The position numbers were made by a program, and so were the translations under genes. 64,000 nucleotides of DNA, from positions 1 through 64,000 of the forward strand of contig JBMFRC010000004.1 in NCBI GenBank assembly GCA_049968235.1, given 5' to 3'. The notes below the pieces were generated by a model. It had not been told where the DNA came from and made no database searches. It saw nothing but the letters and a program-made list of their open reading frames with translations. The stretch comes from Candidatus Hydrogenedens sp. Its GTDB lineage: Bacteria; Hydrogenedentota; Hydrogenedentia; Hydrogenedentales; Hydrogenedentaceae. Shown one piece after another: positions 46,711-51,755 of the stretch; positions within the stretch are counted from its first letter, which is position 1; the number at the start of each line of letters is the position of its first letter.

Positions 46711-47235
46711 ATGCCTATTCATTTTTTTGAACCGTTTCCGTGGCGATTTTGTGCCATTTGTGGAGAAACACTTATTCTTGAAAATGACGGTGAAAAATCG
46801 CGTCCATTTTGCAAAAATTGCCAGAGATATTATTATCATAATCCAACACCTGCAACCTGCTGTTTTGTAACAAATACAGGTAAGGACCTTTTATTAACCC
46901 GTAGGGCTATTCACCCTGCTTTTGGAGAATGGACACTCCCCGGAGGGTATATGGAATTAGGTGAAACAACAGAAGAATCGGCGGCAAGGGAATTATGGGA
47001 GGAGACTGGCATCGTGGCTGAGCAGTTAAAATTGTTAGGCATATCCGCACAACCCAGTAAATTAACAGGAACTATTTTAGTTTTGGGTTTCATTGTAGAG
47101 AAATGGAATGGGATAATTCAGGCAGGTAGTGATGTCTCTGAGGCAGAATTTTTTCAGTATGACCATCTTCCTCCCCTTGCATTTACAGCACATAAAGAAC
47201 TGCTTCGTCTATACTTCCAGAAAATCAATGGATAA
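46711..47235 (+). CDS. NUDIX hydrolase with an N-terminal zinc ribbon.
   Basis: 174 aa. The zinc ribbon reads CAICGE...CKNCQ. The Nudix box reads GGYMELGETTEESAARELWEETG. Confidence 0.8.
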   Translation: MPIHFFEPFPWRFCAICGETLILENDGEKSRPFCKNCQRYYYHNPTPATCCFVTNTGKDLLLTRRAIHPAFGEWTLPGGYMELGETTEESAARELWEETGIVAEQLKLLGISAQPSKLTGTILVLGFIVEKWNGIIQAGSDVSEAEFFQYDHLPPLAFTAHKELLRLYFQKING

Positions 47236-47240
47236 TTATA

Positions 47241-48662
47241 ATGAAAGAAAAGGAACTTTTACAGATAGGTTATAGTTCAAAAGAATTGCGAGAAACAGCA
47301 ATTCAGGTTTTTAATAAAGCAATAAAAACAGGCTTCTCTAAAAAGGAAGCCAAACGGATGCTCCGGGTGATTATTCGCAATCCTGTTGCTTTTTTGCAAG
47401 ACGATTTATGGAAAGAATTGGCACAAAAACTTGATACCGGAACTTATAATAAGAAATCGTCTATCTATCCGGAAGATTTTGGCGAAAAAGATCATTCAAT
47501 AAAGGCACCTTACAAAATTTGGGGAACAGATATTGACCCGGAATCAATCCAGCAAATGCAAAATGCCTGCTCCTTGCCTGTTTCTATCCGCGGAGCGCTT
47601 ATGCCCGATGCCCATGTTGGATATGGCTTACCTATTGGTGGAGTTCTGGCAACGAACAACGCGGTAATACCTTTTGCGGTAGGGGTTGATATTGCATGCC
47701 GTGTTAAAATCAGTGTTTTTGATTTACCAATTGAAATTATTGATGAGAACCCAACAAGATTAAAGAAAGCCATTGAGCAAGAAACACGATTTGGTGTCGG
47801 TGCAACATTCAAACCCCGACGACAACATCCTGTTATGGATTTGAACTGGAATGTTTCCCCTATTACAAAAGAAAATAAAGACAAAGCATGGGACCAGTTA
47901 GGAACCAGTGGTAGCGGTAATCATTTTGTTGAATTTGGAGTTTTAGAAATAATTACAGATGAACTACCGCTATCTCGAGGTTTTTATCTTGCCTTACTAA
48001 CGCACAGTGGCAGTCGGGGTACTGGAGCATTGGTATGCGAATATTACAGTAAAATTGCACGACAGAAACTTCGGAATCTTCCTCATCAATTACAACATCT
48101 TGCCTGGCTATCCTTAGAAGAACATGCCGGACAGGAATATTGGGAAGCAATGCAATTGATGGGCAAATATGCTCAGGCAAATCATGAGTGTATACATCTG
48201 CATATAGGCAAAAATTTAGGTGTTCCTATTATCTGGACTATAGAAAATCATCATAATTTTGCATGGAAAGAAATTCACGATGGACAAGAGGTTATTGTTC
48301 ATCGTAAAGGAGCGACACCGGCAGAAATAGGACAACTGGGGATTATACCTGGCTCTATGGCAAGTCCTGCATTTATAGTTAAGGGTTTAGGAAATGAGGA
48401 ATCGCTTCGTTCTGCAGCGCATGGAGCAGGAAGGCTTATGAGTAGGTCTCAAGCAAAAAAAACTTTATCATGGAAAAAGGTCGAATACCTTCTTAAAGAA
48501 CGCAAAATAAATGTTATAAGCGCAGGAGTAGATGAGGTGCCCCTTGTATATAAAGATATATATAAAGTTATGCAAGAACAAAAGGACCTTGTTACTCCTT
48601 TAGCGGTATTTCATCCACGCATAGTAAAAATGGCGCCAGCAGGTGAAAAACCTGAAGATTAA
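47241..48662 (+). CDS. rtcB: RNA-splicing ligase RtcB.
   Basis: 473 aa. Metal and GMP-His region motifs are DIACRV, SGSRGTG and NHHNFA. It starts 6 nt after the Nudix stop. Confidence 0.85.
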   Translation: MKEKELLQIGYSSKELRETAIQVFNKAIKTGFSKKEAKRMLRVIIRNPVAFLQDDLWKELAQKLDTGTYNKKSSIYPEDFGEKDHSIKAPYKIWGTDIDPESIQQMQNACSLPVSIRGALMPDAHVGYGLPIGGVLATNNAVIPFAVGVDIACRVKISVFDLPIEIIDENPTRLKKAIEQETRFGVGATFKPRRQHPVMDLNWNVSPITKENKDKAWDQLGTSGSGNHFVEFGVLEIITDELPLSRGFYLALLTHSGSRGTGALVCEYYSKIARQKLRNLPHQLQHLAWLSLEEHAGQEYWEAMQLMGKYAQANHECIHLHIGKNLGVPIIWTIENHHNFAWKEIHDGQEVIVHRKGATPAEIGQLGIIPGSMASPAFIVKGLGNEESLRSAAHGAGRLMSRSQAKKTLSWKKVEYLLKERKINVISAGVDEVPLVYKDIYKVMQEQKDLVTPLAVFHPRIVKMAPAGEKPED

Positions 48663-48756
48663 TTTTACATGTCATTTTATTTTAAAGTAAGAACCACTCA
48701 TTGATACAATTTATCAAATATATATTTCTATACCAGAATATAAAAAGGTGATAAAC

Positions 48757-50364
48757 ATGGCGAGTGACTCCACGGATATAAAAGCAGGCACGATTTTATT
48801 TAATGAAAAAATCATAAAGGATTTAATTCATCTTTTAGCCCAACAAATTGTTAATGATAATGATGTTGAAGAATTGGCTTTCATTGGAATACTGCGGAGA
48901 GGTTATCCTTTGGCAAAACGAATTGCAGAAGAAATTTTTAAGATTTGCAAAGTACTCCCGCCAGTAGGGGCGGTCTCAACAACACTTTTCCGAGACGACC
49001 TGAGAATAGGTCGTGGGGTTGTTCAATCTCATGGGACAACACATTTTTCCTTTGATATTAATCAAAGGACAATTATCCTTGTAGATGATGTTTTAGCAGC
49101 GGGGCGAACAATAAGAGCGGCAATGGACGAAATCATGTATTATGGCAGACCTAAAAAAGTACTGCTGGCATGTTTAATAGACCGTGGCGGAAGAGAAATT
49201 CCCATTCAACCCTCTTATTGTGCATGGAAACCAACCCTTGAAGCAATACCTCAAAACTTATGGATTTCTGTCTTGCTTAAAGAGACCGACGGAAAAGATA
49301 TGGTAATCATAGAAGAACAAAAAAGTAAGGCAGAAACTCCATTGCAAGAAGTTTCCACAAAGGAACCGGTGTTTAGTGCGGACCATCCTGTATTGAAGAT
49401 ATGGAAGCACAAAGACTTATTAGGTTTGCAATTTTTATCTAAAGATGAAATTGTCTCTATACTGGATATGGTTCCACCTTTTCTTGAAGTCATGGCACGC
49501 AGTACAGGTATAAAAAAAGTGCCTTTATTACAAGGGAGAGTAGTTGTTCACTGGTTTCATGAACCGAGCACAAGGACCTTCGCCTCTTTTGACTTAGCAG
49601 CGAAAAGATTAAGTGCAGATACCCTTTCCATATCAGCAGCAAGCTCCAGTGAGAAAAAAGGAGAAACACTTCACGATACTTTGTATAACATTGAAGCAAT
49701 GAAAACGGATATTCTTGTGGTAAGACATCGCTACTCAGGTGTGCCAAAACTTTTAGCAGATAGTCATCCTTCTCATGTAATAAATGCAGGAGACGGGCAA
49801 CACGAGCATCCTACACAAGGACTATTAGATGTTTTTACGATGAGGCAGTTCTATCGAAATCATAAAAGGGATATGAACATAGGACTGGAAGGGGCTAAAG
49901 TTTCGATTATTGGAGATATAACTCATAGTCGGGTGGCAAGGAGTAATATCTGGGCATTATTAAAATTAGGTGCTCAAATTACTCTTTGCGGACCTCAGAC
50001 TTTATTACCAAAATCCTTTGAAAAATTAGGTGTAAGGATTACAACGCACCTGAAAGAGGCACTTCTGGATGCGGATATAATTTATTCTTTACGGATTCAG
50101 ATGGAAAGGCAAACCAAAGGTTTGTTCCCAAGTATTCGGGAATATGTCCGTTTGTATCGTATAGACCGCGATACCATTCGATATGCACCGGAACATGCAA
50201 TTGTTATGCATCCGGGACCTATTAATCGGGACATAGAATTAGCAACGGAAATTGCAGATAGCCCAAGGAGTCGAATATTACAACAGGTTAGTCATGGTGT
50301 CGCTGTTCGCATGGCGGTTATGCATCTATTAGCCAATAGTCAATACAACCAGAATGGAGTATAG
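48757..50364 (+). CDS. In-frame fusion of the PyrR regulator / uracil phosphoribosyltransferase domain with aspartate carbamoyltransferase catalytic chain (PyrB).
   Basis: The PRTase motif is IILVDDVLAAGRTIRAA within the first 180 aa. It is followed by the ATCase motifs STRTFASFDLAAKRLSAD and HPTQGLLDVFTM. The start is more likely ATG 48757, which has an AGGTGA Shine-Dalgarno, than the track's GTG at 48748. Confidence 0.75.
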   Translation: MASDSTDIKAGTILFNEKIIKDLIHLLAQQIVNDNDVEELAFIGILRRGYPLAKRIAEEIFKICKVLPPVGAVSTTLFRDDLRIGRGVVQSHGTTHFSFDINQRTIILVDDVLAAGRTIRAAMDEIMYYGRPKKVLLACLIDRGGREIPIQPSYCAWKPTLEAIPQNLWISVLLKETDGKDMVIIEEQKSKAETPLQEVSTKEPVFSADHPVLKIWKHKDLLGLQFLSKDEIVSILDMVPPFLEVMARSTGIKKVPLLQGRVVVHWFHEPSTRTFASFDLAAKRLSADTLSISAASSSEKKGETLHDTLYNIEAMKTDILVVRHRYSGVPKLLADSHPSHVINAGDGQHEHPTQGLLDVFTMRQFYRNHKRDMNIGLEGAKVSIIGDITHSRVARSNIWALLKLGAQITLCGPQTLLPKSFEKLGVRITTHLKEALLDADIIYSLRIQMERQTKGLFPSIREYVRLYRIDRDTIRYAPEHAIVMHPGPINRDIELATEIADSPRSRILQQVSHGVAVRMAVMHLLANSQYNQNGV

Positions 50365-50367
50365 GTT

Positions 50368-51702
50368 ATGAAAATAGTCATAAAAAACGGTTGGGTCATT
50401 GAGCCTTCATCCTGTTTCTCAGGGAAAACCGATATTGGAATAGAAAACGGGGTAGTTTCGGCGGTGGGGTCTAATTTAAAGGGTGATATTTATATAGATG
50501 CAGAGGGTATGGTAGTTGCACCGGGGTTCGTAGATATTCATGTTCATTTTCGGGAACCCGGTTTCGAGTCGAAAGAGACTATTGCCACCGGAGCAAGAGC
50601 ATCGGCTCATGGGGGTGTTACTTCTGTTATTACGATGCCCAATACAATGCCCCCGATTGATAATGCAGGAATGGTAGAATTAGTAGTGAGACGAGCACAG
50701 GATTTGGATGGCATCCACATATACCCTGCGGCTTGTGCAACAAAAGGAAGGGAAGGAAAAGAATTAACCGAAATGGCAGATTTACTTCAATCCGGTGCTG
50801 TGGCAGTAACAGATGATGGTAATGATATAGAATCTTCATCGGTATTACGCCATGTTCTGGAATATGCGGGGATGGTGGGTATCCCCTACCTTGCTCATTG
50901 TGAGGATGAAGCACTAAGTGAGGGAGGGGCTATGAATGAAGGGATTGTGTCCGCACTTTTAGGAATACCAGGTATTCCACGTGAAGCAGAGGAAACACGA
51001 ATTGAGCGAAATATTCGACTTGCTAAATTAGCGAATGCTCCTATTCATATTCAACATGTTACTACAAAACGAGGAGTAGAAATTATCCGACAGGCAAAGA
51101 AGGAAGGAATTTCTGTAACCGCAGAAACCTGTCCCCATTATTGGATGCTAATAGACAGTCAAATTGAAAATTACAATTCAAATATGAAGATGAATCCGCC
51201 ATTACGCGAAAAAGAGGATGTTGACGCAATAATTGCAGGACTTCAAGATGGAACTATTGACTGTATAGCGACAGACCACGCTCCTCACACACGGACAGAA
51301 AAAAATGTCCCATTTCAAGAAGCACCTTTTGGGATTGTCGGTTTAGAAACATTATTGGGGTGTGTAATTAAAGGACTGGTAAAACCTGGGCACCTCAGTA
51401 TTGAAAAGGCAATTCAACTTTTAACAAAAAATCCTGCCAATATCATTAAAATCAATGCAGGAACTCTTCAAATAGGTGTTCCTGCGGATATTACAATTTT
51501 AAATCCTGATGAGGAATGGGTTGTTACAGAAGATTTTTTCTATTCTAAAAGTTCCAACTCGCCATTTATCGGAACAAAATTATATGGTAAAGTAAAAATT
51601 ACTATATGTTGTGGGAAAGTACTGTACGCTGACAAAGACATAACCTTGCCCGATGGATTATCTATATCCCCTACTTTTTTATGTAATAAACTTTTAATTT
51701 AA
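50368..51702 (+). CDS. pyrC: Dihydroorotase.
   Basis: 444 aa. DIHVHFREPG carries the metal-binding HxH. A carboxylated-Lys region and DHAPH are present. It starts 4 nt after pyrR-pyrB. Confidence 0.85.
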   Translation: MKIVIKNGWVIEPSSCFSGKTDIGIENGVVSAVGSNLKGDIYIDAEGMVVAPGFVDIHVHFREPGFESKETIATGARASAHGGVTSVITMPNTMPPIDNAGMVELVVRRAQDLDGIHIYPAACATKGREGKELTEMADLLQSGAVAVTDDGNDIESSSVLRHVLEYAGMVGIPYLAHCEDEALSEGGAMNEGIVSALLGIPGIPREAEETRIERNIRLAKLANAPIHIQHVTTKRGVEIIRQAKKEGISVTAETCPHYWMLIDSQIENYNSNMKMNPPLREKEDVDAIIAGLQDGTIDCIATDHAPHTRTEKNVPFQEAPFGIVGLETLLGCVIKGLVKPGHLSIEKAIQLLTKNPANIIKINAGTLQIGVPADITILNPDEEWVVTEDFFYSKSSNSPFIGTKLYGKVKITICCGKVLYADKDITLPDGLSISPTFLCNKLLI

Positions 51703-51716
51703 AAATATAAAAACAC

Positions 51717-51755
51717 AGGAGCCTATTATTCGCAATGAATAATAGGCTCTTTTAG
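51717..51755. terminator. Rho-independent terminator after pyrC, bidirectional with the convergent oxidoreductase gene.
   Basis: GAGCCTATTATT-(CGCAATG)-AATAATAGGCTC, followed by TTTTAG. Confidence 0.6.

Follow-up and report, generated by a model that had tools for sequence, protein, structure and literature searches.

A PyrR–aspartate carbamoyltransferase fusion in the Candidatus Hydrogenedens lineage and the loss of a leader hairpin suggest a move of pyrimidine control from RNA to enzyme

The first 64,000 nucleotides of contig JBMFRC010000004.1 of Candidatus Hydrogenedens sp. (GenBank assembly GCA_049968235.1, forward strand; hereafter the window) encode a single polypeptide in which the pyrimidine regulator PyrR is joined in frame to the catalytic chain of aspartate carbamoyltransferase (ATCase, encoded by pyrB). 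We find that this pyrR-pyrB fusion is genuine and old, that it appears to have arisen once, and that the fused loci lack a terminator-like hairpin found ahead of pyrR in most unfused relatives. Together, the fusion and the loss of this RNA switch suggest that control of the pathway moved from RNA to the enzyme. PyrR is the classic example of a protein with an enzyme fold that exerts its regulation on mRNA by binding it, and ATCase is the classic allosteric enzyme; if our interpretation is true, the fusion would be a rare case in nature of control passing from RNA to protein. As a system it is also simple and testable, a single polypeptide whose ligands are known and for which a standard ATCase assay exists. 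The parts, namely PyrR, PyrB and a complex-type PyrC encoded downstream, are known, but their PyrR-ATCase architecture is undescribed.

Domain architecture of the fusion protein

The reading frame is unbroken from the ATG at 48757 to the TAG at 50362-50364. A preliminary description of this locus, made from the DNA letters, reported a single open reading frame (ORF) of 538 residues; the single ORF stands, but that length holds only from an upstream GTG at 48748, and the protein has 535 residues from the ATG, which is the likely start because the GTG sits within a Shine-Dalgarno-like sequence. The identical database protein P0001, from metagenome-assembled genomes of Candidatus Hydrogenedens sp., is likewise 535 residues long, and a contig of Ca. 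Hydrogenedens terephthalaticus matches the fusion protein at 99% identity over as much of it as the contig holds.

Pfam detects the Pribosyltran domain (PF00156) at residues 15-150 with 65 bits, followed by OTCace_N (PF02729) at 219-364 with 120.7 bits and OTCace (PF00185) at 379-524 with 95.8 bits. The N-terminal part passes the NCBIfam PyrR model NF003549 (151.3 bits against a cutoff of 138, residues 13-188) and scores below the cutoffs of the four other NCBIfam PyrR equivalog models. The solved PyrR structures 1NON, 1UFR and 1A3C match it with E-values of 1e-25 to 1e-30, and the motifs of its site for nucleotides and phosphoribosyl pyrophosphate (PRPP), GILRRG, TTLFRDDL, VDDVLAAGRT and DRGGRE, are all preserved, with purifying selection acting on them. 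By its type I phosphoribosyltransferase (PRTase) fold, its PRPP motif and the curated-model cutoff, the domain therefore belongs to the PyrR family. The C-terminal part (residues 219-526) clears the NCBIfam PyrB models NF002032 (363 against a cutoff of 263) and TIGR00670 (285 against 237) and has both carbamoyltransferase domains, which place it in PyrB. The motifs quoted in the preliminary description are all present: VDDVLAAGRTIRAA occupies residues 109-122, STRTFASF begins at residue 271 and HPTQ lies at 351-354; HPGP is also found. The closest solved matches of the ATCase domain are 2AT2, 3R7D and 3D6N_B, and the last is also its top Foldseek match, with a template modelling (TM) score of 0.91. 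The structure comparison returned no solved structure that covers both the PyrR and the ATCase domains. No PyrI Pfam domain occurs in the fusion protein, and the PyrB-PyrI fusion model NF009916 reaches 74 bits against a cutoff of 800, over the catalytic part only.

The AlphaFold2 monomer comprises two well-folded domains joined by a disordered tether, with a predicted local distance difference test (pLDDT) value mostly above 90 in the PyrR domain and below 50 at linker residues 190-204, and a predicted TM (pTM) score of 0.64. The linker is hence modelled as a flexible tether without confident fixed docking. Its length varies from ~27 to 45 residues over the fused clade, with in-frame indels between lineages. 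Unfused PyrR ends in a C-terminal tail of ~10-15 residues and unfused PyrB carries ~15-20 residues ahead of the conserved W-x-x-K-D-L. As the linker length equals both tails joined, the PyrR C-terminal and PyrB N-terminal tails appear to have become the disordered linker.

Authenticity and database annotation

The architecture recurs in 11 protein clusters at 61-100% identity. The window protein's own 90% cluster comprises 11 different sequences of 535 residues on more than 25 contigs drawn from NCBI, JGI, ENA and Logan, and nine further full-length fused clusters lie at 61-89% identity with lengths of 531-561 residues. Synonymous positions have reached saturation in the six fused loci compared at the DNA level (synonymous divergence, dS, 0.7 to >3), none of which breaks the frame. 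The ratio of nonsynonymous to synonymous substitution (dN/dS) lies at 0.023-0.039 for the PyrR domain, at 0.014-0.038 for the PyrB domain and at 0.09-0.28 for the linker. Both domains are thus under strong purifying selection. The continuity on which the preliminary description depended is borne out: no stop or frameshift separates the domains, the same frame recurs in 11 clusters and on dozens of independent contigs, and the six DNA loci have dN/dS of ~0.02-0.04 in both domains. Because the architecture occurs in so many clusters and contigs, with saturated dS and low dN/dS in both domains, we regard the fusion as genuine and old, and these comparisons exclude an origin in assembly or sequencing error as well as a pseudogene.

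The fusion is hidden in the databases because annotation either names only the ATCase or truncates the gene. The NCBI product name is just 'aspartate carbamoyltransferase catalytic subunit', and the NCBI records P0010, P0011 and P0391 annotate only the C-terminal 320-323 residues, leaving ~215 codons of conserved PyrR domain unannotated. P0010 and P0011 were considered as unfused close homologues and rejected, since their loci (L001 and L002) carry continuous ORFs of 537 residues and 546-568 residues, respectively; the truncated call in L001 (5001-5972) starts at an Ile codon and that in L002 (5001-5963) at a Leu codon.

Rarity and single origin

When 1.84 billion representatives at 50% identity were scanned exhaustively with HMMER, one genuine full-length fused representative was found. 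Two other representatives, P0241 and P0270, have a partial PRTase domain before PyrB and were rejected. P0241 (locus L014, 3529-5242) is a frameshift artefact: its contig is rich in errors, the neighbouring genes are fragmented and the N-terminus of PyrR lies in a different frame; the linker and C-terminus of P0270, judged from its sequence, resemble an out-of-frame translation. Apparent fusions in Acidobacteriota and Aminicenantes also proved to be separate genes in different frames, with an ATGA overlap or 10 nt apart. Because the two genes normally abut or overlap, frameshifts on error-rich contigs readily produce such false fusions, which is a caution for domain-architecture surveys of the pyrR/pyrB pair. 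Against the second objection foreseen in the preliminary description, the fusion is neither widespread nor characterised: alongside the single representative and the lack of a two-domain structure, the literature searched did not yield a paper that describes PyrR and PyrB fused in nature.

The 11 fused clusters group together as a single clade when PyrB domains are compared in a neighbour-joining tree, and 109 other Hydrogenedentota-like PyrB sequences fall outside it. This monophyly points to a single origin, apparently in the Candidatus Hydrogenedens lineage of Hydrogenedentota. In five unfused Hydrogenedentota loci, pyrR lies directly before pyrB with gaps of 62, 5, -8, 0 and 6 nt, and the ancestor was in all likelihood a tightly packed pyrR-pyrB pair of the kind still seen in these relatives.

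A contig labelled 'uncultured Nitrospirales bacterium' (L007, CAZJTZ010000001.1) also holds a fused gene, which shares 85% identity with the Hydrogenedens protein as well as the rtcB synteny; this bin is probably mislabelled. The representative scan also turned up ATCase chains with other additions: in P0296 (465 residues) the ATCase is preceded by two zinc-finger domains of ClpX type, P0340 (597 residues) has a 293-residue N-terminal region without a Pfam match and P0290 (794 residues) has the ATCase at its N-terminus. These additions may be real or artefactual and are listed as candidates only.

A leader hairpin of unfused relatives is absent from the fused loci

The five unfused loci sampled first all (5/5) carry a terminator-like hairpin directly before pyrR. 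It lies in a short ORF whose frame continues through the hairpin and its T-run (read as Phe-Phe) to a stop that precedes the pyrR start or overlaps it. A further 80 loci, 75 unfused and five fused, came from a metagenome scan with an alignment of unfused PyrR. When the region up to 220 nt upstream of pyrR was scanned for hairpins without reference to any motif, a terminator-like site was found in 64 of 74 unfused loci, and in 45 of these 64 an ATG-initiated leader ORF runs through it, 19 of the 45 ending in an ATGA overlap with pyrR. Generally, the leader ORF of the unfused relatives ends ~20-25 nt before the first gene or overlaps it. The same scan found a genuine terminator-like site in none of the five fused loci; the lone candidate (in L097), a stem of 5 bp, falls within the coding sequence of rtcB and was discarded as a false positive.

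Nearly all of the unfused hairpins have the form CCUUCUC-N4-10-GAGAAGG followed by 5-9 U (for example, MNESAFSPPREGLFFIWTRL and MNEPTFSILREGNFFVWTPR). Their conservation appears to lie at the level of RNA and not of the peptide, because the stem is read in two frames (…GLL… and …TFS…) across loci. In an alignment of 44 hairpins, 95% of cells are paired and the flanking pairs covary (GC/AU/CG/UA and AU/GC/CG); the regular expression with which the sequences were collected accounts in part for the invariant core. A covariance model built for the element (R1) matches 57 of 80 unfused loci with 21-52 bits, in every case immediately upstream of pyrR and on the coding strand. It finds nothing in the fused loci (0/10), and with filters off its best score over the whole window is 10.1 bits (E 1.1), with nothing in 48663-48756. 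The difference between 57/80 and 0/10 is significant by Fisher's test (p = 1.6e-5, uncorrected for shared ancestry). Rfam searches of the unfused leaders, even at E<=5-10, matched no family and gave no weak PyrR site. The unfused relatives thus reveal a conserved pyrR-leader RNA element outside the Rfam families, which may represent an undescribed class of pyrimidine attenuator. Examples are at L015:2443-2491, L017:2443-2492, L018:2443-2492 and L042:1418-1467, and the element occurs in more than 50 other unfused loci. The contig of one unfused relative (L003, 1499-1613 and 10058-10972) has further features of its own, namely a cobalamin riboswitch before metE (64.6 bits), a PDDEXK_3 gene inserted between pyrB and pyrC, and a Cas9-like gene downstream of the pyr genes (Cas9_a, HNH_4 and RuvC_III).

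The leader of the fused gene in the window, 94 nt to the ATG or 85 nt to the GTG, is AT-rich, folds no better than shuffled sequence (z = 0.12) and contains no terminator-like site. At gathering thresholds, Rfam reported nothing over the entire window; its PyrR site (RF00515) was not found at E<=10 in 48300-50600, and no match to the consensus ARUCCAGAGAGGYU with up to two mismatches lies near the fusion gene. These searches agree with the preliminary description, in which the canonical PyrR-binding loop could not be found. Rfam hits near the gene to preQ1-II (minus strand) and IS009 are far below their gathering scores and were taken as chance. A potential leader ORF, MSFYFKVRTTH (48673-48708), was dropped, as the other fused loci do not conserve it and its position is upstream of a conserved -10 element.

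That element belongs to a promoter-like site. When six fused leaders are aligned, its -35-like TTGAAG and extended -10 TGATAnAAT are both conserved, and we infer that it acts as a promoter. If it is used, the 5' untranslated region would be ~40 nt and therefore too short for an attenuator. Overlapping the -10 element is an inverted repeat, TTGATAcaattTATCAA (also written TTGATAcAATTTATCAA), which all six fused leaders keep with minor differences, among them that of L002, whose protein is only 62% identical. This repeat could be an operator for a DNA-binding regulator of the fused operon.

Residue changes specific to the fused clade

Residues T18, R19, H22, R27, R141, R146 and K152 of Bacillus subtilis PyrR reportedly contact RNA. 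In the window protein, the equivalents of T18, R19, H22 and R27 are H25, L26, Q29 and D34, those of R146 and K152 are Q and W, and only R141 is kept. The R19 equivalent is basic in 49 of 57 unfused proteins whose loci bear the hairpin, in 3 of 12 whose loci lack it and in 0 of 10 fused proteins. Likewise, the residue after the RRG loop (Y50 in the window) is R or K in 78 of 80 unfused sequences and Y, F or V in 10 of 10 fused ones. These two basic residues, conserved in the relatives, have been lost in the fused clade. Fused PyrR domains also share a three-residue insertion with an invariant Pro165 and a change from E to L at position 168, both present in 10/10 fused and 0/121 unfused PyrR sequences.

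The ATCase domain has changed as well. The fifth residue of its carbamoyl-phosphate signature is F or Y in 11 of 11 fused sequences, R in 109 of 109 unfused Hydrogenedentota, and R or K in 111 of 123 diverse ATCases, none of which has F or Y. In E. coli ATCase the equivalent of F275 is Arg56, which sits beside the shared active site, where C1 and C2 of the catalytic trimer meet (PMC6056424). Further PyrB residues specific to the fused clade are H265, D279 and H513. Taken together, the fused-clade changes suggest co-adaptation rather than passive joining.

Functional interpretation and alternatives

We hypothesize that the PyrR module has stopped acting on RNA and now serves as a tethered nucleotide- or PRPP-binding module that modulates ATCase, a proposal that we judge to have an even chance of being correct. 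PyrR senses uridine mono- and triphosphate (UMP/UTP) versus the guanosine nucleotides GMP/GTP (PMC7430163). In the fusion, the PyrR module would no longer exert RNA control over the operon. Tethered to ATCase, it would instead bind UMP/UTP, GMP/GTP or PRPP and thereby modulate the activity or assembly of the enzyme, in functional analogy to the PyrI regulatory chain, which is absent from ATCases of this type; it may also remain a uracil phosphoribosyltransferase (UPRTase). Transcription would probably be set by the conserved promoter with its overlapping inverted repeat. The preliminary description had held that a covalent fusion would rewire pyrimidine regulation; the absence of the relatives' leader attenuator from the fused lineage speaks for this view, and the rewiring itself stays conjectural. 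More speculatively, PyrR, having given up its RNA target, may have been captured as an in-cis allosteric domain that does the job of PyrI, with PyrR dimers bridging two trimers in a (PyrR-PyrB)6 assembly with dihydroorotase (DHOase) and with STRTF/Y as part of the coupling. This elaborated version we offer tentatively and think less probable than not.

Several observations weigh against our hypothesis. The allosteric coupling of PyrR to ATCase is purely inferred, and AlphaFold2 gives no confident docking of one domain on the other. The equivalents of R27, H140, R146 and K152, which are among the reported RNA-binding positions, already differ from Bacillus throughout the unfused Hydrogenedentota subfamily, so that the residue argument is only partly fusion-specific. 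Net charge and isoelectric point of the PyrR domain, tried as a proxy for the loss of an RNA-binding surface, were dropped, as net charge does not separate fused from unfused proteins (mean -2.0 for fused and -6.1 for unfused, with -6 for B. caldolyticus). Absence of the hairpin is not unique to the fused clade either, because ~12 of the 80 unfused loci lack a detectable one, and the hairpin of the relatives could be a PyrR-independent, UTP-sensing attenuator. Finally, because all fused loci descend from one event, every feature of the fused clade sits on one branch, and the co-occurring changes are phylogenetically a single observation.

The strongest competitor, which we think has a fair way to go to match our hypothesis and is on balance doubtful, is a neutral 'Rosetta-stone' fusion, in which loss of a stop codon produced a bifunctional UPRTase and ATCase whose domains work independently and whose regulation lies elsewhere, for example with a DNA-binding factor at the inverted repeat. 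As pyrR and pyrB lie within -8 to +6 nt of each other in most relatives, one indel or stop loss would have been enough, and sequencing errors do readily create such joins. A disordered and fast-evolving linker, the pTM of 0.64 with no fixed interdomain packing predicted, and a conserved promoter and palindrome that could supply the regulation are all as expected from passive joining. It is countered by the change of otherwise-invariant positions (STRTF/Y in 11/11 against 0/109, and Y/F/V after the RRG loop of PyrR in 10/10 against 2/80), by the conserved three-residue insertion in PyrR and by the loss of the leader attenuator at the same time; since all of these changes share one branch, lineage drift keeps a place among their possible causes.

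A less probable alternative, in our estimation an unlikely one, is that the PyrR domain is still an RNA regulator with a divergent site in the leader, in the coding region or in trans, the ATCase trimer merely serving to multimerise PyrR. The strong purifying selection on the domain and its passing one curated PyrR model would fit this, and the search for a site covered 64 kb of the genome only. Unfused relatives likewise lack the canonical Rfam PyrR site, so that the PyrR of Hydrogenedentota, if it binds RNA at all, needs a non-canonical target. Opposed to it are the absence of a canonical loop or hairpin element from the window and from ~100 kb of fused loci, the unstructured AT-rich leader, which would be only ~40 nt long if the conserved promoter is used, and the loss in 10/10 fused proteins of basic residues that correlate with the hairpin. 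Lastly, internal initiation near residues 205-216 to give a separate PyrB, or an artefactual or decaying fusion, is very improbable: in-frame TTG and GTG codons do occur near the junction in the window and three records annotate the C-terminal part alone, but the truncated calls begin at non-conserved Ile and Leu codons inside continuous ORFs, no start codon or Shine-Dalgarno sequence near the junction is conserved across the clade, the PyrR part would be a stop-less orphan despite its dN/dS of ~0.03, and the same frame is found in dozens of independent assemblies.

Comparison with known systems

The PyrR domain shares its fold, family and PRPP/nucleotide motifs with PyrR of B. subtilis and B. 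caldolyticus (PDB identifiers 1A3C and 1NON), as well as a position at the head of a pyrB-pyrC operon. In Bacillus, however, PyrR is a free protein of ~180 residues that acts as an mRNA-binding attenuation protein and UPRTase, whereas here it is covalently joined to ATCase and the fused leader has no ARUCCAGAGAGGYU loop, antiterminator or terminator. Thus, two features that define PyrR, a cognate RNA site and, R141 apart, the reported RNA-contact residues, are wanting in the fusion. The joining of a nucleotide-binding module to an ATCase chain resembles the PyrB-PyrI fusions (NF009916) and the E. coli PyrB6-PyrI6 holoenzyme, in which PyrI senses pyrimidine versus purine nucleotides; it differs in that the module is an N-terminal PyrR of PRTase fold and not a C-terminal PyrI fold, and in that the allosteric coupling is here only supposed.

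Among solved ATCases, the nearest relatives are the ATCase-DHOase complex of Aquifex aeolicus (3D6N) and the unregulated trimer of B. subtilis (2AT2, 3R7D). The matching PyrB subtype and the complex-type pyrC 3 nt downstream also align the genes of this locus with the Aquifex class A type, whose physical complex is a dodecamer of ATCase trimers and DHOase dimers. Unlike the fused clade with its STRTF/Y, the Aquifex and B. subtilis enzymes lack an N-terminal domain and have the canonical STRTR. As in eukaryotic CAD, whose human ATCase domain is a close structural match, a function of the pyrimidine pathway is covalently joined to ATCase; CAD, however, combines consecutive catalytic steps (carbamoyl-phosphate synthetase-DHOase-ATCase), whereas a regulator or salvage-enzyme domain has been joined here.

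Leader-peptide transcription attenuators are found in pyrimidine operons such as E. coli pyrBI and the Thermus pyr operon, the latter together with PyrR. The unfused Hydrogenedentota loci, in which a short ORF likewise spans the terminator hairpin with its T-run, have the same layout; it is missing from the window and from all fused loci. The unfused hairpin is distinguished from those attenuators by its CCUUCUC/GAGAAGG stem, conserved as RNA and belonging to no Rfam family; it may respond to PyrR, to UTP-dependent coupling or to both.

Gene neighbourhood and other features of the locus

Directly downstream of the fusion gene is pyrC (Table 1), a dihydroorotase of 'multifunctional complex' type with its metal-ligand motifs in place (HVH at residue 58, DHAPH at residue 303). 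The preliminary description placed it 4 nt after the fusion; its start at 50368 indeed follows the stop after a 3-nt spacer. With the GGAG ahead of the pyrC ATG lying within the end of the fusion ORF, pyrC appears to be translationally coupled to the fusion gene. Beyond pyrC, a perfect hairpin likely marks the operon end; its palindromic stem would form on both strands, and it is probably a bidirectional terminator.

Table 1. Coordinates of the fusion gene, its parts and adjacent features in the window
Feature	Coordinates	Strand	Basis
pyrR-pyrB fusion gene, 535 residues + stop	48757..50364	+	Open reading frame, domain and family matches; 100% identical to P0001
PyrR-family type I phosphoribosyltransferase domain, residues 13-188	48793..49320	+	Pfam, NCBIfam, solved-structure matches
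Fusion-specific basic-residue losses: H25, L26, Q29, D34, Y50	48829..48906	+	Alignment with B. subtilis PyrR and unfused relatives
Three-residue insertion in the EAIPQN region with invariant Pro165; E replaced by L at residue 168	49240..49257	+	Alignment
Linker, residues 189-215, E/K/P/S/T-rich	49321..49401	+	pLDDT, dN/dS, in-frame indels
Aspartate carbamoyltransferase catalytic chain, residues 216-528, B. subtilis/Aquifex type	49402..50340	+	Pfam, NCBIfam, closest solved matches, Foldseek
Carbamoyl-phosphate signature STRTF, F275 in place of near-universal Arg	49567..49581	+	ATCase alignment
Promoter-like site: -35-like TTTAAA (TTGAAG in relatives), 18-nt spacer, extended -10 TGaTACAAT	48681..48710	+	Consensus scan
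Inverted repeat TTGATAcaattTATCAA overlapping the -10 element, possible operator	48701..48717	.	Occurs once in the window
Shine-Dalgarno-like AAGGTGA, 5 nt before the ATG	48745..48751	+	Read from sequence; AAAGG conserved in fused leaders
pyrC, 'multifunctional complex' type dihydroorotase	50368..51702	+	TIGR00857, 427 bits against a cutoff of 279
Perfect 13-bp hairpin GAGCCTATTATTC…GAATAATAGGCTC between pyrC and convergent oxidoreductase	51719..51749	.	Scan scored - strand

Upstream of the fusion, on the same strand, are a NUDIX gene and rtcB (46711-48662), and downstream lies a convergent Gfo/Idh/MocA-type oxidoreductase gene. The order NUDIX-rtcB-fusion-pyrC is complete in the window and in L002, both with the convergent oxidoreductase; L001 shares only rtcB-fusion-pyrC and has different flanking genes, and the unfused relatives have other neighbours. 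Co-transcription of the fusion by read-through from rtcB is possible, because no terminator lies between the two genes.

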